NCBI GenBank assembly: GCA_003009755.1
Contig: PXUB01000029.1
Span: 3,164 to 67,163 of the forward strand
DNA: 64,000 bases
From: Thermoplasmatales archaeon SW_10_69_26
GTDB lineage: Archaea > Thermoplasmatota > SW-10-69-26
Direction: 5' to 3'
How positions within the stretch are numbered: the first letter of the stretch is position 1; each line of letters starts with the position of its first letter. The notes under the pieces were generated by a model. It searched no databases and was not told the origin of the DNA. It saw only the letters and a list, made by a program, of their open reading frames with translations. Below, piece after piece: positions 2,113-12,347 of the stretch. The position numbers and the translations under genes were made by a program.

Positions 2113-3198
2113 GTGGCGCACGTGAGCGACGAGGACGAGTTCTACACGCGCGAGAACCTGCTGTCGGCCCCTGTCGAACAGCTGGACCCCACGGAGGTCG
2201 ACACCGTGGCGGAGCTGCTGGAGGGCATGGCCGGCATGAGCTTCCAGGCGCGCAGCCTCGGCCAGTGCCTGCGGGTCTGGCAACGCGCCCTCGAGGACGG
2301 CGAGCGGCCCACGGTCATCCTCGGCGTCGCCGGCTCGCTGATCGCCGGCGGCATGCGGCGCGTGATGAGCCGCCTCGTCGAACACGGTCTCGTCGACGTC
2401 GTCGTCAGCGCCGGCTCCCAGCCCTACCAGGACCTCTACCAGGCCCGCGGCGAGGACTACGACCACTGGCGCGCCACCCCCGAGATGGACGACATCGAGC
2501 TGCGCGAGCTCGAGCTGGATCGCCTGTACGACACCCTCGTCGACGAGCGCAGGTTCGCCGACACCGACCAGCTTTTGGGCAGCATCGTCGGCGAGCTCGA
2601 CCCCGGCCGCTACACGACCCGGCAACTGTACGACCACCTCGGCGCCCGCTTCGACGACGACGAGAGCCTCGTCGTGCAAGCCCACCGCACCGGCACGCCG
2701 ATCTTCTGCCCGGCCCTCAACGACTCCAGCCTCGGCATCGGCATGGTGCAGGACCTGCTCGAGGCCCGCGAGGAGGGTCGCGAGGTCCCCACCCTGGACC
2801 CGATCCTCGACCACTACGAGCTGGCGCAGATCACCGGCGCCAGCGAGAAGACGATGGTGATTTACGTCGCCGGCGGCACGCCGAAGAACTACATCCAGCA
2901 GACCCAGCCGATCAACCACTACCTCGGCAACGACGTCGGCGGCCACGACTACGCGATCCAGATCACCGCCGACGCCCCCCACTGGGGCGGCCTGTCGGGC
3001 TGCACGCTCGAGGAGGGCCAATCGTGGGGCAAGATCGCCGCCGAGGCCACGCGCGCCACCGCCTACTGCGATGCGACGATCGGGCTCACGATGCTCGCCA
3101 CCGCGCTCTTCCAACAGCCCGAGCTGTGGGAGGATCGTGGGCGGCTGAGCTTCGACTTCGAGGACAACGAGCTGACGCTCGAACGCGAGGCCGCCTGA
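2113..3198 (+). CDS. dys: Deoxyhypusine synthase
   Basis: Motifs GSLIAGG, FCPALNDSSLG, GGTPKN and GGLSGCTLEEGQSWGK, with the active-site Lys retained. Confidence 0.93.
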   Translation: MAHVSDEDEFYTRENLLSAPVEQLDPTEVDTVAELLEGMAGMSFQARSLGQCLRVWQRALEDGERPTVILGVAGSLIAGGMRRVMSRLVEHGLVDVVVSAGSQPYQDLYQARGEDYDHWRATPEMDDIELRELELDRLYDTLVDERRFADTDQLLGSIVGELDPGRYTTRQLYDHLGARFDDDESLVVQAHRTGTPIFCPALNDSSLGIGMVQDLLEAREEGREVPTLDPILDHYELAQITGASEKTMVIYVAGGTPKNYIQQTQPINHYLGNDVGGHDYAIQITADAPHWGGLSGCTLEEGQSWGKIAAEATRATAYCDATIGLTMLATALFQQPELWEDRGRLSFDFEDNELTLEREAA

Positions 3199-3604
3199 GG
3201 GCACCGATCGAGCCACGGACCGGGGGGCCGAGGACCCACGAGCTGGGGTTCACACCGTCACCCGTTCATCGACAGGGTCCTTCGACGACCTCCCGTTGAC
3301 GACGGGACCCGAGGGAGGCCCCGTCAGGAGGTACCGACAAGCGAAAACTTGCGACGGTTGTGGCGTCCGGCTTCGGGGCGCTTCTCGGTTCCAACGTCGC
3401 AGACCCTGCTCACTTCGCCCACCATCCGAGAGGTGCGACCGAGGTGGACGGACCGAGCTCGGGCTCCCCCTCCGGGGGGTCCGACGGTGGCTACCGAGCG
3501 TCGGAGGCCGAGCGACGGACGTGCACGTCGACTTGATGCCGCACCCCGGTCGATGAGCCTCGTGTTCCTCAGACGTGAGTGGTGGCTGCCACGTCCGAGG
3601 CTAC

Positions 3605-3698
3605 GCACGGCCTCCGCGACGTCTGCGGTCGGCCGTGCTTTCGCCAGAGACCGCGTTCCATGGCCTCGAGGTCCCCGATCGAGAGCGGTCTCTGGCGA
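3605..3698 (+). repeat. 94 bp two-hairpin repeat, family D, copy 1
   Basis: 8 bp stem/18 nt loop, 2 nt spacer, then a 14 bp stem TCGCCAGAGACCGC/GCGGTCTCTGGCGA with a 30 nt loop. Same layout at 11881-11974. Confidence 0.85.
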
Positions 3699-3893
3699 TC
3701 CTCTCTTCGGGGGTCGCTCGGCTCATCGCCGGATCAGGCCGGATCGGAGATCCGGCCGCTTCCGAGACCGCGGGTCTGCCGGTCTCGGGCCGCACACGAG
3801 CGCTCGCTCGTGCTCTCGCGACGTCCGCACTCGCTCGCGCCCGTGGCGCTTCTCAGCCCCTCAGCTGGGCTGTGGACGAGAGGGGCTGAGAAG

Positions 3894-3966
3894 TGGGACC
3901 GCCCGAATTTGAATCGGGGTTAACCCGCCCCCAGCGGGCAAGGATACCAAGCTACCCCACGGTCCC
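3894..3966 (-). tRNA. tRNA-Pro (GGG)
   Basis: GGGACCG acceptor, anticodon arm GCCCG-CTGGGGG-CGGGT, T-arm CCCGA-TTCAAAT-TCGGG, discriminator A; CCA not encoded. Confidence 0.95.
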
Positions 3967-4001
3967 AGTGGAATGCGGGGAATCCCGCCAAACAGGGAAC
4001 C

Positions 4002-4010
4002 CGCTATAAC
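4002..4010 (-). promoter_or_regulatory. Putative TATA box of tRNA-Pro
   Basis: GGTTATAGC on the minus strand about 40 nt upstream of the mature 5' end, in a GC-rich background. Confidence 0.5.
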
Positions 4011-4164
4011 CGTTTCGGGAGCCCCCTCGACCGGCTCGATCCCTCTCGGCCTCTCTCCCTTGGATCTCCGCCTTCGAGAAGGCGTCTGCGCTCCGTCAGC
4101 CGGGGGTGGACAAGTGCCATCTCCGATGGGCTTAAGAGGAGAGAGAACGACTCTCGGCCACCTC

Positions 4165-4620
4165 ATGGACGACGCGGACACCGGAGGCGACACCGCTGAC
4201 GGCTCCGATCTGCGCGAGCGGGTCCGTCGAGCCCTGGCCGCGGAAGGCTTCAGCTGGGAGCTGTGGCAGAAGCCCGAGCGCGGCCAGATCTTCGGGATGA
4301 TCCGCCGAGACGGCGAGATGCAACTGCACGTCCGCTACTACGAGGACGACGTCGTCAAGGCCGAGCGCGAGCTCGCCAACGATTACGTCGAGCACCTGCT
4401 CTCCCCGCGCGTCTCCGCGCACGAGGAGGTCGAGGAGATCCTCGAGGACCACGGGCTCGGCGACGAGGTCGACGTCGAGGAGAAGCGGTTCCCGCCCCGG
4501 CACGACGGCGTGGACATGCCCAGGACCCGCACACGCTGGAAACCGCTCGTGGTGGGCGTGGGTGTCGCGCTCGTCGGCGCGGTCGCCGGCACGGGTCTTC
4601 TCTTCTCCGGCGGCGAGTGA
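4165..4620 (+). CDS. Hypothetical protein with a C-terminal TM anchor
   Basis: ATG 4165 about 30 nt after CTTAAG; acidic globular part and a hydrophobic C-terminus. Confidence 0.8.
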   Translation: MDDADTGGDTADGSDLRERVRRALAAEGFSWELWQKPERGQIFGMIRRDGEMQLHVRYYEDDVVKAERELANDYVEHLLSPRVSAHEEVEEILEDHGLGDEVDVEEKRFPPRHDGVDMPRTRTRWKPLVVGVGVALVGAVAGTGLLFSGGE

Positions 4621-4702
4621 CCGCCGGCGAGCCCCGCTGAACGCTCGTCTCACAGGGAACCGAACAGCGGCGGGTCCACGCTGGGACCCGCCGCCGGACC
4701 CC

Positions 4703-7426
4703 CTAAGCCTCGAGACAACCCTTGGGCGTGTCAGCGCTGGTCTCCGTGGCCGGGATGGTGCACAGGATCTCGTGGTCGCGCGTCTCGTAGAACGGCGTCA
4801 CGCGGGCGTTGCTGGACACCGTGTTGTCACCGGGGAACACCGGCGTGTCCACGACCGGGCCCTGCTTGCCCCAGAAGTTGTGCGTGGCGTTCACGCGGGC
4901 CTCGACGTTGGCGCGCAGGCCGAAGTCCTCGTTGCCCACGATGTCGCACTCGTGCATCCACAGCGGGTCGTCGTCATCGTCGTCGCCCGGCGGCTGGGGG
5001 ACCCCGACGCTGGGCGGCTCCGGGACCGGGACCTGCAGGTCGACGTCGACGTCGCCCGAGACCACGACCACGCCGTCGGCGTTGAAGCTGGCTTCGCAGT
5101 CCTCGACGATGAACAGCGTCCCGCCCAGGCGCATGCCGGCTTCGCCGTTGCCGGAGAAGTTGCCCTCCTCGACGCGGGCTTCGCCGCGCAGGTTGACCCC
5201 GTCCTCGCTGTTGTTGCGCGCGAACACGGTCTCGAGGCGGGTGGTTCCGGTGGCCTGGATGCCGGTCTCGTCGTTGAAGGAGGCTCTCACGTCCTCGGCG
5301 TGCAGCTCGCCGGCGACGTCGACCCCGATCTCGTTGTCGACGACGACGGACTCCTCGAGCGTGAGGGAGCCCTCGGCGTGGATGCCGGTCCCGGCGTTCT
5401 TGCTGGCGTTGACGTTGGTCATCTCGACGCGGCCGTCCACGTCGGCGCCGATCTCGTTGCGCACGAAGACGTCGCTCTCGAAGCTGCCGCCGCCCTTCAA
5501 GTGGACGCCGGCCTCGGCGTTGCCTTCGAAGCGGTTGTCGACGAAGACGCCGGTGGCGCACTGCGTCCGGTAGGTGTGGTGGCAGCCGGAGACGTCAGCG
5601 ATCCCGTCACCACTGTTGTCGACGATCACGTTGCCCTCGAAACGGGCGTCCGTGCGCTTGTCGAGGTGGACCCCCGCCTTGTCGTTCTCGGCGAACGTGT
5701 TCGCCTCGATCGTGCCCTGGAAGTGCACGAGCACCGCGCCGACGAGGTTCGACTCGATGTCGTTGTTCAGCACCTCGACATCGTGGCGCCCCTGATCGAA
5801 GCTGCCCTTCAGCACGAGGCCGGCCTCGGTCGTGCTGCGGATCGAGTTGTCCACGATCACGCCCTCGGCGCCGCCGCGGAACTCCGCGCCGACGGCGACG
5901 TGGGCGAACACGTTGGCGCGCACGGTCACGAACCCGCCATCGGCTTCCACGCACACCGTCTCGGGCGGATCGATCTCGATGTCGCAGATGTTGTCCTTGA
6001 CGAACGTGCGGGAGTCGACCGAGACGACGGCCTCGTTGTTGGAGAGGAACGCGTTGTCGCGGACGCGGACGAAGGCCGATTGCTCGACGTGCACCCCGAC
6101 GTCGTTGTACTGGAAGGTGTTGTTCTCGATCGTGACGTCCTTGCTGTCGTAGACGACGACGCTCCCTTGCAGGAACAGGCTGCCGAAGCCGTCGTCGCGT
6201 TGGCCGGCCACGATCTCCTCGTCGGTAACGTTGACGCCGACCTCCTCGTAGAAGATCCGCTGCTCGTCGGGGTTGACGGTGCCGTCGACGTTCACGCCGT
6301 CGATGAAGTTGCCCTGCATGAGGGGGATCGACCCCTTCGAGTCGTAGGGCACCGACATCCCCCACCGGTTGTCGTTCAAGACGTTGTCCTCGAGCGTGAT
6401 GATCGAGTGCGACAGGCGGATGCCGACGTCGTTGCCGACGAGCGTGTTGTTCACGACGCGGCCCTCGCTGCCCTCCAGCCGCAAGCCCTCGTTGTTGTTG
6501 GGCCCGGCCTCGTCGCCGTTGTCGCGGAACACGTTGTCCTTGATGAGGACCTCCGAGTTCGTCGATCCGAAGGCGCCCCGCCAGTTGTTGGCGATCGTGT
6601 TGCGGAACATCTGGACGGTCGATCGCTCGAACGCGATGGCGTCGCGCTTCTGGTTCGTGACCTCGTTGTCCTGCATGTACAGCTTGGCGCTGTCGACCAC
6701 GATCCCGCCCATGCCCTCCGAGATCGAGTTCGAGATCAGGCGGGCGTGAGCCGAGTCCTCGACGTGGACGCCCCAGCGGTCGGCGAGGCTCACGTTGTTG
6801 TTGACGAGGCGCGCCTGCGTGGCCTCGGACAGGCGGATGCCGTCGTAGACGGCCGTGACGTTGTTGTTCGAGATCTCCGGCGAAGAGGACTGGGCCCAGA
6901 TCCCGTGTTGGGCCAGCGTCACGAAGTTGTCGTCCAGGGTCGGCGAGCCGCCATCGATGCCGATGCCGAGCGTGCCGTCATCGTAGGCGGTGTTCGTGCC
7001 TCGCACGTCGTTGCCGGCGACGAACGGCGAGCTGTTCTCGAGGTCGATCCCCGTGGACGCGAAGTCGATCACGTTGTCCACGACGGTCCCGCGGTCGCCG
7101 GTGTTCGACAGCACGAGACCGGCGTCGCCCTCGAGTTGGTTGTCGCGCACGATGAAGTGCTCGTCGGCGATGTTCTGGATGACCATCGCCGTTCCCGAGG
7201 TTTGGATCCGCCAGTCCTCGATGATGAACGGGTCCGTGGGCGTACCCGAGGCGCCAGGGTTGCGGATGCAGGCGCAGGCGTTCGTTCGCAGCTCACCGTC
7301 ACCGTCGATCGTGATAGGGGCGTGGGGTTCGTCGGCCGTTCCTCTCGTGATCTCGGCCAGACTGCCCAGACCTCCCGTCAGGGCTAACAGCGCCATCGCC
7401 ACCGCTTGACCTCGCACGTCGGACAC
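4703..7426 (-). CDS. Secreted right-handed beta-helix (NosD/pectate-lyase-like) protein
   Basis: Signal-like N-terminus, PHAPITIDG...GT..DPFIIEDW motif, many xxNxxxxN beta-helix repeats; start could be a nearby downstream ATG. Confidence 0.9.
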   Translation of the reverse strand: MSDVRGQAVAMALLALTGGLGSLAEITRGTADEPHAPITIDGDGELRTNACACIRNPGASGTPTDPFIIEDWRIQTSGTAMVIQNIADEHFIVRDNQLEGDAGLVLSNTGDRGTVVDNVIDFASTGIDLENSSPFVAGNDVRGTNTAYDDGTLGIGIDGGSPTLDDNFVTLAQHGIWAQSSSPEISNNNVTAVYDGIRLSEATQARLVNNNVSLADRWGVHVEDSAHARLISNSISEGMGGIVVDSAKLYMQDNEVTNQKRDAIAFERSTVQMFRNTIANNWRGAFGSTNSEVLIKDNVFRDNGDEAGPNNNEGLRLEGSEGRVVNNTLVGNDVGIRLSHSIITLEDNVLNDNRWGMSVPYDSKGSIPLMQGNFIDGVNVDGTVNPDEQRIFYEEVGVNVTDEEIVAGQRDDGFGSLFLQGSVVVYDSKDVTIENNTFQYNDVGVHVEQSAFVRVRDNAFLSNNEAVVSVDSRTFVKDNICDIEIDPPETVCVEADGGFVTVRANVFAHVAVGAEFRGGAEGVIVDNSIRSTTEAGLVLKGSFDQGRHDVEVLNNDIESNLVGAVLVHFQGTIEANTFAENDKAGVHLDKRTDARFEGNVIVDNSGDGIADVSGCHHTYRTQCATGVFVDNRFEGNAEAGVHLKGGGSFESDVFVRNEIGADVDGRVEMTNVNASKNAGTGIHAEGSLTLEESVVVDNEIGVDVAGELHAEDVRASFNDETGIQATGTTRLETVFARNNSEDGVNLRGEARVEEGNFSGNGEAGMRLGGTLFIVEDCEASFNADGVVVVSGDVDVDLQVPVPEPPSVGVPQPPGDDDDDDPLWMHECDIVGNEDFGLRANVEARVNATHNFWGKQGPVVDTPVFPGDNTVSSNARVTPFYETRDHEILCTIPATETSADTPKGCLEA

Positions 7427-7481
7427 CTGCTCGCCCGTTCACGAGCTCACATAAAGGCGTCCGGCTGTATCCGACGGTTCG

Positions 7482-8261
7482 TTACACCCTCGTCGTGTGG
7501 TCGTTGACGACGGCCAGCGAGGCCTGCAGGGCCTCCTCCGCGCGGACCGACCGGGTCTTCTGGTCGGGGATCGTGTTCACGAGCGGGAAGTTCGGCGGCG
7601 TGTCCAGGACCTCCTGGATGCCGCGGTCCGGGGTCCCGAACACGAGGGTGACCTCCTCGTCGTCGGGCAGGTGCTCGTCCGGCTCGAAGCCATCGCCCCG
7701 GCGGCTGGTGCCCAAGATCGGGCCCCGGCCCTCGATCGCGGTCGACAGATCCGGCGTCCGCGTGACCTCGTAGGTGGTGTACTCGTCCGGGTCGGCGGGC
7801 TCGACCAGCACGCGGTCGGCGCGCGTGGCCGTGATCGTCACCGGGAACTGCTGGCCCGGTTCTGGCGGCTCCTCGGCGTCGAGCTCGGCCAGCCCTTCGA
7901 GCCCGATGTCCACGCGCTTGCCCGCCATCGCGCCCATGCGGACCTGGCCCTGCTCGACGAACGTGTCCACGAGGTGGGTGTCCAGGTTCAAGGGCGGCAG
8001 CACGCCGACGTGCTCGAGATCCTCGCTGATCGGGAACAACCGCCGACGCAGGTAGGGCGCCGTCGCCTGGTAGTCGAGGATCTGGGACACCCGACGGCTG
8101 CCCCGTCGCTCGGGATCCTCGTAGACGACGACCTCGTCCACGCCGAAGATCGCCGCCGCTCGCCCGACGGTGCCGACGGCGTGCGTCGCCAGCCGGTCGT
8201 CGTCGATCGTGGCCGTCAACGAACCCGGCACGAGGATCGACGTCACGCCCGCCACGGGCAC
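7482..8261 (-). CDS. SPOUT-family RNA methyltransferase (DUF171/C9orf114-like)
   Basis: SILVPGSL...GRAAAIFGVDE...YQATAPYLRR...GVLPPL...NTIPDQKTRSVRAEEA; GGAGG RBS before GTG 8261. Confidence 0.88.
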   Translation of the reverse strand: MPVAGVTSILVPGSLTATIDDDRLATHAVGTVGRAAAIFGVDEVVVYEDPERRGSRRVSQILDYQATAPYLRRRLFPISEDLEHVGVLPPLNLDTHLVDTFVEQGQVRMGAMAGKRVDIGLEGLAELDAEEPPEPGQQFPVTITATRADRVLVEPADPDEYTTYEVTRTPDLSTAIEGRGPILGTSRRGDGFEPDEHLPDDEEVTLVFGTPDRGIQEVLDTPPNFPLVNTIPDQKTRSVRAEEALQASLAVVNDHTTRV

Positions 8262-8423
8262 CCCTCCTCCGGGCCGACGATCGCGGGCAGTGCCTGGCAG
8301 ACCAGGGAGACGGCAGCGGTCCTCACGTCGGTCGGGACTCGGCCCCGATGCATCAACCCTTCGGCGCCCGGGCCCCGGGCCGCCGACCCCGGAACTGATG
8401 GGAGCCAGCCCGGCTGGACCCTC

Positions 8424-9140
8424 GTGGACGCGAGGCTGGGTTCCGAGCTCGAGCGACCCACCGAGGGCCCCAGCTCCGTGCCCGCGCTGCTCGCCGTCTT
8501 GGCCCCGCTGTCCGTCGTCGTGGCGCTCGAAACGACCGGCAACGTGCTCGTCGCCTTCGCCGCCTACCACCTTGCCTTCTGCCTGATCGTCCCGCTCACC
8601 GTGCTCGGCTTCCGCCACCGCGCCTGGGCGCCGGTCGCCGAGGGCCTGGCGCTGCAGGCCCCCTCGCGGGAGGGCTGGCTGGCCGGCGCCGCGCTGGGGG
8701 TCGGGACCGCGGGCGCGATCCTCGGCGGCTTCGCGCTCGCCGGCGACGGCCTGCTGGGGCCGGTTCCCGTGATCGAGCGGTTGATCCCGTGGGGGATCGG
8801 GCCGGACCTCGAGGTCCCCCTGTTCGTCTACATGCTCGTCTTCAACAGCGGCGCCGAGGAGCTGTTCTGGCGCGGCTACCTGCACACCGAAGCCGCCGCC
8901 CGCCTGGGCTCGATCGTGGCGATCCCGCTCGTGGCGGTGGCGTTCGCCAGCTACCACGTGTACACGCTGGCCGCCCTGCTGCCCGACCCTGGCCTCGTGG
9001 CGTTCGCCGCCGCCGGCATCCTCGCCGGCGCCCTCCTGTGGGCGGGCCTCCGCCAACGCTACGGCTCCGTGTGGCCGGCGGTGCTGGCCCACGTCGGCGC
9101 CACGGCCGGCTACATGACTGTGTTCGCGTGGCTGGTGTGA
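8424..9140 (+). CDS. CPBP (Abi/CAAX type II) intramembrane metalloprotease
   Basis: EELFWRG, FASYH and C-terminal H motifs; multi-TM; start GTG inferred. Confidence 0.88.
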   Translation: MDARLGSELERPTEGPSSVPALLAVLAPLSVVVALETTGNVLVAFAAYHLAFCLIVPLTVLGFRHRAWAPVAEGLALQAPSREGWLAGAALGVGTAGAILGGFALAGDGLLGPVPVIERLIPWGIGPDLEVPLFVYMLVFNSGAEELFWRGYLHTEAAARLGSIVAIPLVAVAFASYHVYTLAALLPDPGLVAFAAAGILAGALLWAGLRQRYGSVWPAVLAHVGATAGYMTVFAWLV

Positions 9141-9223
9141 GCTCGACGGGGCAGTGGTGATTCCTTCCGCAGGCACAGGGTCGGAACACTCAAGGACGCC
9201 GACGGGTAAATTACGTCCGTCAG

Positions 9224-9805
9224 GTGACCCACGTGGACGAAGATCCCCGCGACGACGACCGACGGGACCCGTTCGAGGAGCTCCGCGACCGGTTGGAGGA
9301 GGACCCGTTTCTAGGCCCTTTCTTCGAGGATCTCGACCGCGAGTTCTCCCGTATGCAGGAGTCGCTGGCTCGCATGCTCGAGCAGATGCAGGACGGCGAC
9401 CTCGACCCGGACGCCGACCCGTTCGTGTACGGGTTCTCCGTCCAGATGGGCCCCGACGGTCAGCCCGACTTCAGCGAGTTTGGCAACGTCGAGGGCTCGG
9501 GACCGGCCGACGCCGGCGCCTTCGAGGAAGCTCGCAAGCCGCTCGTCGACGTGCAGGAAGGCCAAGCGACGATCGCGATCACGGCCGAGCTGCCCGGCGT
9601 GGCCAAGGAGGACATCGACCTGCGCGCGCTGGAGGCGCAGATCGTCGTCAGCGTGGACGACCCCGACAACCGCTTCTTCAAGCGCATCGACCTCCCCACC
9701 GAGATCGAACCTCACACGACCGACGCCACGTACAAGAACGGCGTCCTCGACATCGAGGTCGACAAGGCCCCCGACGAGGAGGGCACCCCGATCGACCTCG
9801 AGTGA
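9224..9805 (+). CDS. hsp20: Archaeal Hsp20 small heat-shock protein
   Basis: PFVYGFSVQMGPDG.P...FGN, alpha-crystallin domain (AELPGV.KEDI, YKNGVL). Confidence 0.93.
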   Translation: MTHVDEDPRDDDRRDPFEELRDRLEEDPFLGPFFEDLDREFSRMQESLARMLEQMQDGDLDPDADPFVYGFSVQMGPDGQPDFSEFGNVEGSGPADAGAFEEARKPLVDVQEGQATIAITAELPGVAKEDIDLRALEAQIVVSVDDPDNRFFKRIDLPTEIEPHTTDATYKNGVLDIEVDKAPDEEGTPIDLE

Positions 9806-10078
9806 CCCGCCGACCGCCACGGCTTCGGCCCCGAACCTGAGGAAAGAGCCAAATACGTCCCCTCGGCGAGCCGAAGCCAACCCGGCCCGACCACGACCGA
9901 GCCTGCGCGCCCGGTCCCGCCCCGCCCCCCTCGGGCCGGGTTCCTCTCGGGCACCGTGCCGTGGATCTTCGGACCACACCCCTCCCCGGATGGCACGGTG
10001 CCCTTCACCCCTCCTCTCGACGGAAACGAACAGACCTTCACGACACCGTTGAAGAAGGCCCCGAACCTTCTCCATCCC

Positions 10079-10840
10079 GTGTTGGGGAACAGGCAGGCAA
10101 CGGTTAGCGTCAGCATCGTGTTGATCGTCAGCCTCTTCGCCACCGGCGGGGCCCTCGCCGAGGAGATCGAGGACCCGACGGGGACCGCCTGCGTCGGCGT
10201 GGAGGACGAGGCCGAGTGCGAGCAGCTCGCCGTCGCCAGCGACGGCGACGCGGAGAGCGACGTCCTCGCGGTCAGCGGGACCGGCGACGCCGACGCCGTC
10301 TTCGTCGCCGGCACGGGAACGGGCGACGCCGACGGCAGCGCGGTGGGCCTCAGCGGCACCGGGAACGCCACCGCCGTCTTCCTGGCAGCGAGCGGGACCG
10401 GCGACGCCGAGACCGAACGCCTGCGCATCGCGGCCGTCAGCGGCACCGGCAGCACCTCCGCCGAGGTCGTCGAGGTCAACGGCATGAACGACGCCGACGG
10501 CTGCGTCGCCGTCAGCGGGACCGGCAACGCGGACGCCGACTGCGGGTCCCCGGCTGGCCCGGCCGCCGTCAGCGGCTGCGAGAACGGTCAAGAGATCGAC
10601 CGCTCGGAGGCCTGCCGCGACCCCGACGAGCGCGTCGAGGCCGCGAACGCCGCCGCCTGCGACGCCGAGCTGGCCACCGCCGACGGCGACGGCCACGCCT
10701 GGTGCGGCGTCCAGATCGGCGGCTGCGTGCAGGTCATCTACGGCGCCGCCGCCGGCCCGGTCTTCGTCGGCGGGTACAACGGCTGCCAGGTCGGCGTCTT
10801 CTACGACGACAACGGCCACGACGACGCGCCGCTGCCGTGA
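10079..10840 (+). CDS. Secreted acidic protein with (A/L)VSGTGxA repeats and Cys-rich ends
   Basis: GTG 10079 about 25 nt after GTTGAAGAA; signal peptide ending GGALA; about 8 SGTG repeats. Confidence 0.75.
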   Translation: MLGNRQATVSVSIVLIVSLFATGGALAEEIEDPTGTACVGVEDEAECEQLAVASDGDAESDVLAVSGTGDADAVFVAGTGTGDADGSAVGLSGTGNATAVFLAASGTGDAETERLRIAAVSGTGSTSAEVVEVNGMNDADGCVAVSGTGNADADCGSPAGPAAVSGCENGQEIDRSEACRDPDERVEAANAAACDAELATADGDGHAWCGVQIGGCVQVIYGAAAGPVFVGGYNGCQVGVFYDDNGHDDAPLP

Positions 10841-10893
10841 GGCGGTCACACCGAACCGGTGAGCTTTTAGCCCGCGCAGGGCCTCCCCCGGCC

Positions 10894-11166
10894 ATGGCCA
10901 TGGGACGCCTCCTGCGCGGCCTCACCGGGCTCGTCGCCTCCTCCGTCGTGCTCATCCTGCTCGGTCTCGTCTACTTCATCGTGACCGCCTGGATCGTCTC
11001 CTTCGGCGTCGAGACGGTGATGGGCGCCACGCCCTCGGCCGATTTCGTCGCGCTGTCCGCCGCGCTGTTGTCGCTGGGCAGCCTCGCCGGCTCCAGCTAC
11101 TCGATGGGTGACCTCGGCTCCCAGGAGGCCGAGACGGACCGCTACGGGACCAGCGAGGTCGCCTGA
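10894..11166 (+). CDS. Small membrane protein (2 TM)
   Basis: ATG 10894/10900 after CTTTTAG; two hydrophobic helices. Confidence 0.75.
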   Translation: MAMGRLLRGLTGLVASSVVLILLGLVYFIVTAWIVSFGVETVMGATPSADFVALSAALLSLGSLAGSSYSMGDLGSQEAETDRYGTSEVA

Positions 11167-11307
11167 GGGACAGCCTCGATCTCGGGACCGGCGTGGCCGG
11201 GCCGTGAACCAGGCCAAGCTGGGCCTGATCGTCGCCTTCGTGCTGGCCGCGCCCGTGACCGGGTGCGCCCAGGAGGCCGGCAAACCAGTCCGGCGGCCTC
11301 GGCCCGC

Positions 11308-11667
11308 TCAGAACGTCAGCGTCTCGTCGTTGCGCTTGGCCTGGGAGACGAGGTCGCCGGCGCCGCCGAACTCGGCCCAGTCGACGAGGTCGGCCTCCTC
11401 GATGCCGCGCGCGCCGGCGCACGGCTCGCAGACGATCGCGCTGCGGATCGCATCGTTCTCGCGGAGCGCGTCGAGCACCTCGGCCACCGGGGGCAGGCCG
11501 GGCGCCGTCAGCTCGCCCAGCTCGGCGCGCTCGGTGCCGAGGTAGGTCGCCTCCTGCATGAGGAACAGGTCCACCTGCTCGCCGTGACCCATCGCGCCCT
11601 TCGAGGCCACGAACGGGAGCACCGCTTTCGTCGCGTTGTCGGGACCGATGGTGGAGATGACGTGCAT
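11308..11667 (-). CDS. DsrE/DsrF-like family protein
   Basis: LPF..KGA...GEQVDLFLMQEATYL...VCEPCA.ARG motif. Confidence 0.88.
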   Translation of the reverse strand: MHVISTIGPDNATKAVLPFVASKGAMGHGEQVDLFLMQEATYLGTERAELGELTAPGLPPVAEVLDALRENDAIRSAIVCEPCAGARGIEEADLVDWAEFGGAGDLVSQAKRNDETLTF

Positions 11668-11880
11668 GGGATCGGCGACCGAAGGCGCGGGCGGCCTAAA
11701 CGGTTGAGGGTGGGACCGTCGGTCCCGCGGTCACTGCGATGGGAACATCGAGCCCGGTCGACGGGTATCCAGCTATCGACGCCGGTGATCGCGCATGCAC
11801 GGCCGCATCGCGTTCCCGTCTCACTGCGATGCGAGCATCGAGGCTAGCGGTATCCCCAAGCCTAGCGATGCTCGCAATTC

Positions 11881-11974
11881 GGACGGGCTCGGCGGTTTCT
11901 GTGGTCGCCCGTCCTCTCGCCAGAGACCGCGTTCCCCGTCCCCGAGATCCCCGATGGCGGGCGGTCTCTGGCGA
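11881..11974 (+). repeat. 94 bp two-hairpin repeat, family D, copy 2
   Basis: Same arm and loop lengths as 3605-3698; identical 14 bp arms. Confidence 0.85.
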
Positions 11975-12044
11975 TTCGTACGAACGCCTCGCCTGACGGC
12001 TCGCCGTTCGTACTCTCGGCGTGAAGTACCTCGAACGCTGCGGT

Positions 12045-12347
12045 CTACCCTTCTCGGTACTTCACGCCGAACCCACCACGAGGATGGTTCCAGTCGACGC
12101 TGCCGGGGGTGCACACGATGTCGCAGGTGCCGCACTCCACGCAGTCCTCGTACTGGAACGTCATCTTGCCGTCGACGAGCGTGAAGCAGTTCACCGGGCA
12201 CGAGTACATGCACATCCGGTGGGTGCACGTCTCGCAGATCTCGGGATCGATCGAGATGTGGGCGTGCTCCTCGTCGTCGAAGTTGTAGCTGGTCGCCCCC
12301 AGGCGTGCCTTGATGTCGAACTTCTCGTCGGTTAGTTGCTGGCTCAT
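12045..12347 (-). CDS. fixX: FixX-type ferredoxin
   Basis: CETC...CMYSCPVNCF and YEDCVECGTC...HPRGGFGV.YR.G; overlaps the fixC stop. Confidence 0.9.
   Translation of the reverse strand: MSQQLTDEKFDIKARLGATSYNFDDEEHAHISIDPEICETCTHRMCMYSCPVNCFTLVDGKMTFQYEDCVECGTCDIVCTPGSVDWNHPRGGFGVKYREG

Follow-up and report, generated by a model that had tools for sequence, protein, structure and literature searches.

Arrays of hairpins resembling bacterial interspersed mosaic elements lie behind genes of a GC-rich Thermoplasmatales archaeon

Introduction

Repetitive extragenic palindromes (REPs) and bacterial interspersed mosaic elements (BIMEs) are a classic feature of bacterial genomes and raise the question of how such palindromes arise and stay perfect without a transposase. 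In bacteria, REPs are found chiefly downstream of genes and are believed to act as RNA elements, and those of the CGTC type lack a transposase (PMC3733652); the roles proposed for the REP/BIME class are protection of transcript 3' ends and termination (PMC3733652, PMC2817692). We found no archaeal equivalent of these repeats described in the literature searched. Here we describe a 94-bp repeat composed of two hairpins that occurs in a 64,000-nucleotide stretch of the Thermoplasmatales archaeon SW_10_69_26 (contig PXUB01000029.1, positions 3,164 to 67,163 of the forward strand; hereafter, the window), together with the arrays of hairpins of which this repeat forms part.

Work on the origin of hairpins and on archaeal transcript ends also bears on such a repeat. 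Template switching can create RNA hairpins and maintain perfect pairing in them (PMC8794818). It acts at quasipalindromes (PMC7202029) and, in yeast, has been studied in highly transcribed DNA and tied to RNA-DNA hybrids (PMC3820800). In a reporter of GC-rich Haloferax, termination at a hairpin upstream of a 3' end reached 59% of transcripts (PMC7237163). We propose, with a probability of roughly 0.55, that the arrays described below are BIME-like arrays of DNA palindromes that are kept perfect by templated inverted copying, have spread without a dedicated transposase and probably serve as 3'-end hairpins.

Results

The repeat consists of two modules of multi-copy families

Both copies of the repeat, copy A (3605-3698) and copy B (11881-11974), have the two-hairpin geometry that the original prediction had described from the sequence, namely an 8-bp stem and a 14-bp stem separated by a 2-nt linker [Table 1]. 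As had also been described, the 14-bp arms of hairpin 2 are identical in the two copies and the stem of hairpin 1 differs between them at two positions, each swap being compensated on the other side. Folded as single strands with DNA parameters, the two copies on either strand gave z scores of -4.0 to -6.0, with 0-1 of 200 shuffles equal to them. The copies match one another at E = 1.4e-19 in a whole-genome search, and the window holds these two copies and no more. Neither matches an Rfam 15 family at the gathering score, the sole match in the window being a tRNA-Leu.

The window is contig C29 of a 2.8-Mb assembly (G000; 69% G+C, 95% complete), a fragmented metagenome-assembled genome (MAG) with under-assembled repeats. 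Hairpin 1 and its flanks form a module that we call Y1, a profile of which found 26 copies in this genome at E <= 4e-7, the next match reaching only E = 0.19, and a covariance model of the same module (R1) gave 30 matches. Hairpin 2, the module X1, recurs in at least 11 clean copies built of arms around a GAGAC core and a loop of about 30 nt with conserved ATCGGGGAYCTCG. The 94-bp unit is, accordingly, two neighbouring modules of multi-copy families and no isolated pair. The idea that its two copies are the ends of an 8.3-kb composite element was dropped because they belong to a family with 26 members and because they enclose nothing but ordinary genes (NosD-like, RNA methyltransferase, Rce1-like, HSP20 and DsrE). 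Y1 itself is one sub-family of a broader Y class with the base GNACG...CGTNC: genome-wide, 152 perfect hairpins have GNACG/CGTNC bases, 60 of them with the strict flanks GA...GAA/GGA/AGA. A generic Y pattern gave 31 matches in this genome versus 2 in shuffles; in 40 relatives, codon-like chance matches swamp its signal.

Further copies keep the pairing, so that its loss in additional copies, which the original prediction had named first among the findings that would speak against it, was not seen. Pairing is seen in 92% of the cells of the 26-sequence Y1 alignment, versus 30-60% with slid partners, and double-change cells number 28 versus 9.3 in shuffles; pairs 10-41 (CG13/GC8/UA3) and 14-37 (GC12/CG7/AU3/UA1) both covary freely. 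The stems of X1 are 97.4% Watson-Crick, with seven of 14 stem columns changed on both sides and not one G·U pair. We note that X arms very often hold GAGAC/GTCTC, in forms (GAGACC, GAGACG, GAAGAC) that are recognition sequences of type IIS restriction enzymes, as at 3641-3654 of the window, C15:20419-20472 and C25:85312-85369; this may reflect either a restriction-modification system of the host or a site recognised by the process that builds the arrays.

Table 1. Features of the two hairpin arrays of the window and of the genes beside them.
Feature	Position	Strand	Description
Deoxyhypusine synthase gene	2113..3198	+	Convergent with tRNA-Pro; far boundary of array A
Array A	3199..3892	-	Hairpin stack between the deoxyhypusine synthase stop and the tRNA-Pro 3' end
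Copy A, hairpin 1 (Y1)	3605..3638	-	Stem 3605-3612 / 3631-3638, GCACGGCC/GGCCGTGC; 18-nt loop
Copy A, hairpin 2 (X1)	3641..3698	-	Arms 3641-3654 / 3685-3698, TCGCCAGAGACCGC/GCGGTCTCTGGCGA; 30-nt loop
tRNA-Pro(GGG)	3893..3966	-	Array A runs in sense from its 3' end
DsrE-like gene	11308..11667	-	Downstream of array B; a different gene in this place in strain L062
Array B, X2	11830..11876	-	TGCGAGCATCG ... CGATGCTCGCA; linker ATTC next
Copy B, hairpin 1 (Y1)	11881..11914	-	Stem 11881-11888 / 11907-11914, GGACGGGC/GCCCGTCC; 18-nt loop
Copy B, hairpin 2 (X1)	11917..11974	-	Arms 11917-11930 / 11961-11974; 30-nt loop
Array B, second Y-class hairpin	11978..12013	-	GTACGAACG ... CGTTCGTAC; 18-nt loop; G[TC]ACGAAC sub-family
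Array B, first hairpin (X0)	12016..12070	-	Arms 12056-12070 / 12016-12030
fixX-like ferredoxin gene	12045..12347	-	3' end opens array B

The arrays follow genes and share one order of modules

The arrays are read here as the reverse complement of the window, which is the sense of the preceding gene. In that sense their order is the gene end, an X hairpin (arms TC...GA), the linker GA, a Y hairpin (GNACG...CGTNC), a linker of the form G(A/G)A(T)C such as GAATC, a further X hairpin, and onward. This X/Y order was the same at all Y1 loci parsed, with units arranged head to tail, and the 94-bp unit, in which Y1 precedes X1 on the plus strand, is X1-GA-Y1 in gene sense. In array A, copy A lies 195-288 nt behind tRNA-Pro and the order is tRNA-Pro, four other hairpins, X1, Y1 and more hairpins; the orientation of Y1, set by its flanks, is that of the minus strand, in sense with the tRNA. 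Copy B is embedded in array B (about 11830-12070), whose order is the fixX stop, X0, a Y hairpin (GTACGAACG), X1, Y1 and X2 (GCGAGCATCG), and members of the X2 family adjoin Y1 at most loci.

Genome-wide, all counted Y1, X1 and Y-class modules are intergenic by the crude set of gene calls, based on G+C at third codon positions (GC3), that was made for this analysis. The nearest upstream feature, gene or tRNA, has the same sense in 49 of the 58 oriented Y modules and lies at most 400 nt away in 45 of these; six of the 26 Y1 copies stand behind tRNA genes. Of the stop codons, 3.1% have a perfect hairpin of 11 bp or more within -40 to +120 nt, versus 0.7% at starts or mid-gene, and stems of at least 13 bp number 21 near stops versus 0-1 at starts or mid-gene. 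The arrays are, in other words, a feature of gene 3' ends that is limited to a minority of genes. No T-run follows the hairpins at the window copies or in the parsed arrays, where the linkers are GA and GAATC, so that they lack the hallmark of intrinsic and of archaeal oligo-T terminators. A separate family of hairpins with A-rich loops (CTCCCGAGGGGGG acaaagaaaaatcctcggcaacaaagaaa CCCCCCTCGGGAG) lies 30-70 nt past four stop codons (G000:C12:17705-18703, C32:55430-56110, C43:27426-28883 and C41:46565-49006) and is a candidate for a separate terminator or repeat.

The first hairpin of many arrays is built from the gene end

Thirteen arrays or more open with an X hairpin made of the gene's last codons, or of the 3' end of the tRNA, and a perfect inverted copy of them. 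At the fixX-like gene of the window, the last codons form the coding arm (12056-12070); the loop contains the stop codon TAG (12045-12047), and the other arm, 12016-12030, repeats the 15 nt of the coding arm in inverted orientation without a mismatch. The hairpin at the aspartyl-tRNA synthetase (AspRS) gene has the arms TCCCACGAGACAGAGACC / GGTCTCTGTCTCGTGGGA, which span the conserved C-terminus FPRDRDRLRP*, and the end of a CGS-like gene, IEDVVDLETDLDQALESM*, likewise serves as an arm. The C-termini of these genes are native, and the downstream arm is therefore the derived copy. More generally, the 5' arm lies in coding sequence or in the stop codon in 24 of 58 stop-proximal hairpins, 13 of which are followed by GA and a Y hairpin, and a perfect X hairpin abuts 30 of the 60 strict oriented Y modules, with 13 such X arms beginning inside the upstream gene or tRNA.

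The tRNA-derived arms come from tRNA-Gly, twice, and from tRNA-Leu, and copying of tRNA ends is confined to arrays beside these tRNAs. Elsewhere, the notion that the linker GATTCG and the X arms are relics of a tRNA T-loop and acceptor stem was rejected, as none of the genome's tRNAs has an end like GCCAGAGACCGC or GCCAGCATCG. Directly behind a tRNA-Gly, the start of contig C3 (G000:C3:1-365) carries 134-nt tandem repeats, within which the assembly breaks off; each unit is made of an inverted tRNA-end copy, Y1 and a spacer.

The stems themselves are strikingly clean. Of 203 array hairpins, 165 are perfect and 38 have one mismatch (13 of G·U type, eight of A·C type and 17 of transversion type), and wobble pairs give no strand bias in X stems or array hairpins. 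Perfection of this kind points to templated palindromes, unlike RNA helices that drift via wobble pairs. Near-perfect Watson-Crick stems without an excess of G·U, taken together with arms that are inverted copies of gene ends, thus suggest that the palindromes are made and corrected by templating at the DNA level; selection on structure, which the original prediction had read from the compensated swaps, is one possible reading of the stems and probably not the best.

The loop of Y1 is conserved (TC GGCGGT NNNNNN GGTC; columns 17-34, e.g. 3613-3630 of the window), and this brings in a structured non-coding RNA (ncRNA) gene or RNA sponge that would act in trans, for instance by binding a protein through the Y1 loop. 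Strong covariation, stable folds, the conserved loop positions T17, C18 and G31-C34, and 27 G·U versus 11 A·C on the plus strand in a putative 4-bp inner stem of Y1 would all suit such an RNA. A free-standing ncRNA, one of the options of the original prediction, is nevertheless very improbable, the faintest of the candidates weighed here: no Rfam family matches; there are from 26 to more than 60 copies in shuffled modular combinations; the X stems are devoid of G·U, and the two strands fold alike; orientation tracks the upstream gene, yet the strand that shows the G·U bias is the opposite one; the arms come from coding sequence; and, beyond two weak matches in G003, the sequence family was not found in other genera. 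Wobble pairs were rejected as a guide to an RNA strand, since they contradict one another, the inner stem of Y1 favouring the plus strand and the X and array stems being unbiased.

Arrays persist at the same genes across genera and vary between strains

Comparison covered five other genomes of the family and, more widely, 40 relatives. The Y1 sequence family is restricted to this species-level lineage. Its covariance model found no credible match in the 40 relatives beyond the two weak ones in G003, and the exact pattern gave only chance matches elsewhere: 27 single matches among 185,579 species genomes, in unrelated GC-rich bacteria, and two in a metagenome collection, both in coding DNA. The X/Y grammar is older than this family: G003, a genome of another genus, has arrays with the same X/Y alternation and linkers and different sequences.

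At the AspRS end, hairpins occur at the same codons in G005 (TCCCGCGAGACCGCAC/GTGCGGTCTCGCGGGA) and G002 (TTCCCGAGGGACCGCAC/GTGCGGTCCCTCGGGAA), each with sequences of its own and all of them perfect; the one in G005 is followed by a Y hairpin and three tandem repeats. The end of the CGS-like gene similarly has lineage-specific hairpins with perfect arms in G003 and G005. Hairpins at the AspRS and CGS-like genes are thus each found in three genera, with each arm tracking its own coding sequence. Neither hairpin occurs in genus g2 (G001, G004), where about 60 nt separate the CGS-like gene from the next gene; this same next gene lies behind the array in the genome of the window. Downstream of its true end, the CGS-like gene has its last 12-19 codons repeated in diverged second or third copies, along with their hairpin arms, at G000:C1:90566-91270 and in G005 and G003.

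Strains of the same lineage differ at both loci. At the locus of array B, assemblies L060 and L061 are identical to the window, while strain L062 (JGI 3300046063) has an extra Y+X pair of 149 nt between the stop codon and X0 and, beyond X2, other modules and a different downstream gene (L062:2606-3260 versus window 11640-12060). The last eight fixX codons are present twice in L062, as GGCGTGAAGTACCGCGAGGGCTGA and GGCGTGAAGTACCGAGAAGGGTAG, which encode GVKYREG* in either case and differ synonymously, with 125 nt of hairpins between them and 149 nt from start to start; the real fixX end of the window strain is the second L062 version, with its atypical codons. At the locus of array A, the 94-bp unit of strain L123 matches that of the window but for one change, in the linker (TTTC to TCTC). 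Just beside copy A, this strain differs from window 3480-3560 by a 44-nt indel flanked by 10-nt direct repeats (CCGGTCGATG), and past about 3480 there is no similarity. Whole sets of modules are repeated in tandem on C3 (134 nt), at 90.9 kb of C1 and in G005. The arrays, then, expand by tandem duplication and vary between strains, and they seem, from the sequences compared, to grow at the gene-proximal end.

The unit is a target of an insertion sequence and no mobilising enzyme was found

An insertion sequence (IS) of the IS1595 family (PF12762 and PF12760), about 1 kb long, interrupts Y1-TCTC-X1 units at two loci and in both at the same relative position, namely at G000:C47:43553-44690 and at the end of C39 with the start of C6, two contigs that the second copy probably joins. 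The terminal inverted repeats of the element (GGTGCTGACCGTGGGCTTTCAATA and TATTGAGAGGTCCCGTTCAGCACC) are unrelated to the unit, and its insertions are flanked by 8-bp duplications (CTCGCGAG and CTCGACAG). The unit is therefore a target of an IS and not an IS end, which disposes of the possibility that it is a fragment of an IS terminus, the other finding that the original prediction had said would speak against it.

A linked HUH/RAYT-type transposase (RAYT, REP-associated tyrosine transposase), which the original prediction had proposed looking for, was not found: a search for PF01797, the Y1/RAYT transposase domain, yielded nothing at E <= 0.01 although the controls were positive and the assembly is 95% complete, and the assembly encodes neither TnpB (PF07282) nor a reverse transcriptase (PF00078). 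The suggestion of a REP/BIME-like unit or mobilised palindrome consequently holds in that the modules are multi-copy, intergenic, modular, lineage-restricted and strain-variable, and fails as regards the transposase. These results bear directly on a non-autonomous mobile element, akin to a MITE (miniature inverted-repeat transposable element), a REP doublet forming hairpins (REPIN) or a palindrome-associated transposable element (PATE), whose enzyme would be encoded elsewhere, perhaps on a replicon that escaped assembly or binning. Such an enzyme would cut and paste, or copy, the Y+X double hairpin, whose place behind genes would reflect target choice or survivorship. A dispersed multi-copy family within one lineage, strains that differ by whole modules, copies at contig ends, as is typical of repeats, and a Y base whose GNACG...CGTNC with fixed flanks resembles a recognition site are what such an element might leave, and bacterial CGTC-tagged REPs without a known transposase exist (PMC3733652). 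We nevertheless consider it unlikely. Terminal inverted repeats and target duplications are lacking at the unit edges, where the flanks are other modules; the three domains named above are absent from the assembly; the sole IS seen uses the unit as a target; and a cut-and-paste element would not be expected to have arms that are copied from the adjacent gene and retained there from one genus to another.

Tyrosine recombinases are encoded by three genes of the assembly, all of them tRNA-adjacent. One of them belongs to a 4.4-kb island of 55% G+C adjoining tRNA-Gly (G000:C2:33058-37700), which carries a tyrosine integrase, a helix-turn-helix (HTH) N6/N4 DNA methylase and a BamHI-like restriction endonuclease and is flanked by a 97-nt direct repeat (96% identical) that comprises the 3' end of tRNA-Gly and an inverted copy of it, with GAGA and a whole Y1. 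This island, whose integrase is accompanied by a direct repeat that holds both a tRNA end and Y1, raises the possibility that the arrays are recombination scars, that is, att-site material of integrative elements of tyrosine recombinases, with serial integrations duplicating gene ends and stacking remnants. The duplicated and diverged gene ends after fixX in L062, after the CGS-like gene and after AspRS in G005 do resemble attL and attR. Such an origin is very unlikely, however, given that none of the three recombinase genes lies near the roughly 20 other arrays, that the "cargo" between duplicated ends is 130-230 nt of hairpins only, that integration yields direct duplicates whereas the arms here are inverted, and that the tandem periodicity fits slippage or unequal exchange.

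Discussion

Each of the alternatives considered above, whether mobile element, recombination scar or ncRNA, covers part of the data, and none covers gene-derived inverted arms and their tracking across genera together. We favour BIME-like arrays of DNA palindromes. Their arms would be created and kept perfect by template switching, that is, fold-back copying, during replication or repair, a single event of which would yield a "compensatory" change on both sides of a stem. Y1, X1 and like modules may pass from array to array by the same copying or by recombination, with no need of a dedicated transposase. Once in place, the hairpins could stop or pause RNA polymerase, or shield transcript 3' ends, from either direction. 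A 3'-end role is predicted because the hairpins stand at or over stop codons, in sense, and persist across genera, and in a genome of 69% G+C with few T-runs this position and the comparison between genera make action as 3'-end hairpins the most likely function.

Several observations weigh against this proposal. The terminator or stabiliser role is inferred from position only. About 3% of genes bear such hairpins, so the arrays are not the general terminator of this genome, and a few of them, on C4 and C32, stand in 5', divergent or antisense settings. Strong selection combined with ordinary compensatory mutation could also keep the arms perfect. A pure DNA-palindrome model leaves unaccounted for both the conserved loop of Y1 and the G·U excess of its inner stem, which favours the plus strand, antisense to the upstream gene. 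Finally, the MAG is 95% complete and its repeats are under-assembled, so that a mobilising gene could be missing.

A tentative and more ambitious reading, which we hold to be doubtful, is that of a so far unknown active process, possibly with a dedicated enzyme, that tags the 3' ends of genes and tRNAs with an inverted copy of their last 11-19 nt plus a Y module, in genera g1, g3 and g4 and not in g2. Older copies would then shift downstream while the array grows. If true, this would be a new kind of mobile or self-building element whose variable arm is templated by the target and not carried along, and the hairpin would amount to a made-to-measure terminator.

Under the favoured explanation by templated inverted copying, the genome offers a readable record in its fixed X/Y grammar, its gene-copied arms and the persistence at orthologous genes of arms that track their lineage. 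The arrays allow selection to be tested against one-step template switching as the source of "compensatory" changes, and likewise the use of hairpins as transcript 3'-end signals in GC-rich archaea poor in T-runs. They also call for caution in annotation, since covarying hairpins in such genomes may not be ncRNA genes and are not safely called so.

Among described systems, REPs and BIMEs come closest. They too are short GC-rich palindromes in tens of copies, outside genes and mostly just downstream of them, with two unit types in mosaics joined by short fixed linkers, tandem amplification and restriction to species or strains; the genome studied here has many extragenic palindromes behind genes (26 Y1, at least 11 X1 and about 60 oriented Y-class modules, 49 of 58 in sense). 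The differences are several. BIME units alternate in orientation, whereas the units here run head to tail and it is the type, X or Y, that alternates; the GTAG tag is lacking, the Y base being GNACG...CGTNC and the X arms starting with TC and ending with GA; the loops, at 18-30 nt, are long; these arrays are archaeal; and the RAYT gene flanked by REPs of the REPIN/RAYT system was not found here by its domain, PF01797. The first unit here, moreover, often takes its sequence from the 3' end of the upstream gene, a feature that, to our knowledge, is undescribed for BIMEs. CGTC-tagged REPs share CGTC-like ends, a place downstream of genes and the lack of a dedicated transposase (Di Nocera et al. 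2013, PMC3733652), and some of the 26 Y1 copies have CGTC in their Y base. Those REPs differ in having 8-9-bp stems starting with A/T, 4-5-nt loops, CCA tails and head-to-head dimers, and are spread over five bacterial phyla (PMC3733652).

The unit boundaries have neither the terminal inverted repeats matching an IS nor the target duplication of a MITE; PATEs and other IS200-IS605 derivatives find no counterpart, PF01797 and PF07282 both being without a match; and no GTTRRRY cores of integron attC sites were seen by eye at module ends, the three tyrosine recombinases being tRNA-adjacent and the integron-integrase sub-family not having been specifically searched.

BOX elements of Streptococcus pneumoniae are, like the arrays here, modular and intergenic, with a variable number of modules and predicted stable structures. 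Their modules and grammar are unrelated, their boxA/boxC ends resemble terminal inverted repeats, and they are not known to have gene-derived arms. The double-hairpin elements (DHEs) of mitochondrial genomes are comparable tiny hairpin units. Mitochondrial GC clusters and repetitive hairpin-forming elements are likewise tiny non-coding units, one or two hairpins each, that spread through their genome, with compensatory stems and no known transposase (PMC2800124, PMC4478555), and differ in being organellar, unrelated in sequence, without a fixed relation to gene 3' ends and without copying of gene ends. As a process, template switching at quasipalindromes has in common with the arrays perfect inverted repeats and apparent compensation in one step (PMC7202029, PMC3820800, PMC8794818). 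It is known as a sporadic event, whereas here it would have to recur at gene ends beside a specific Y module.

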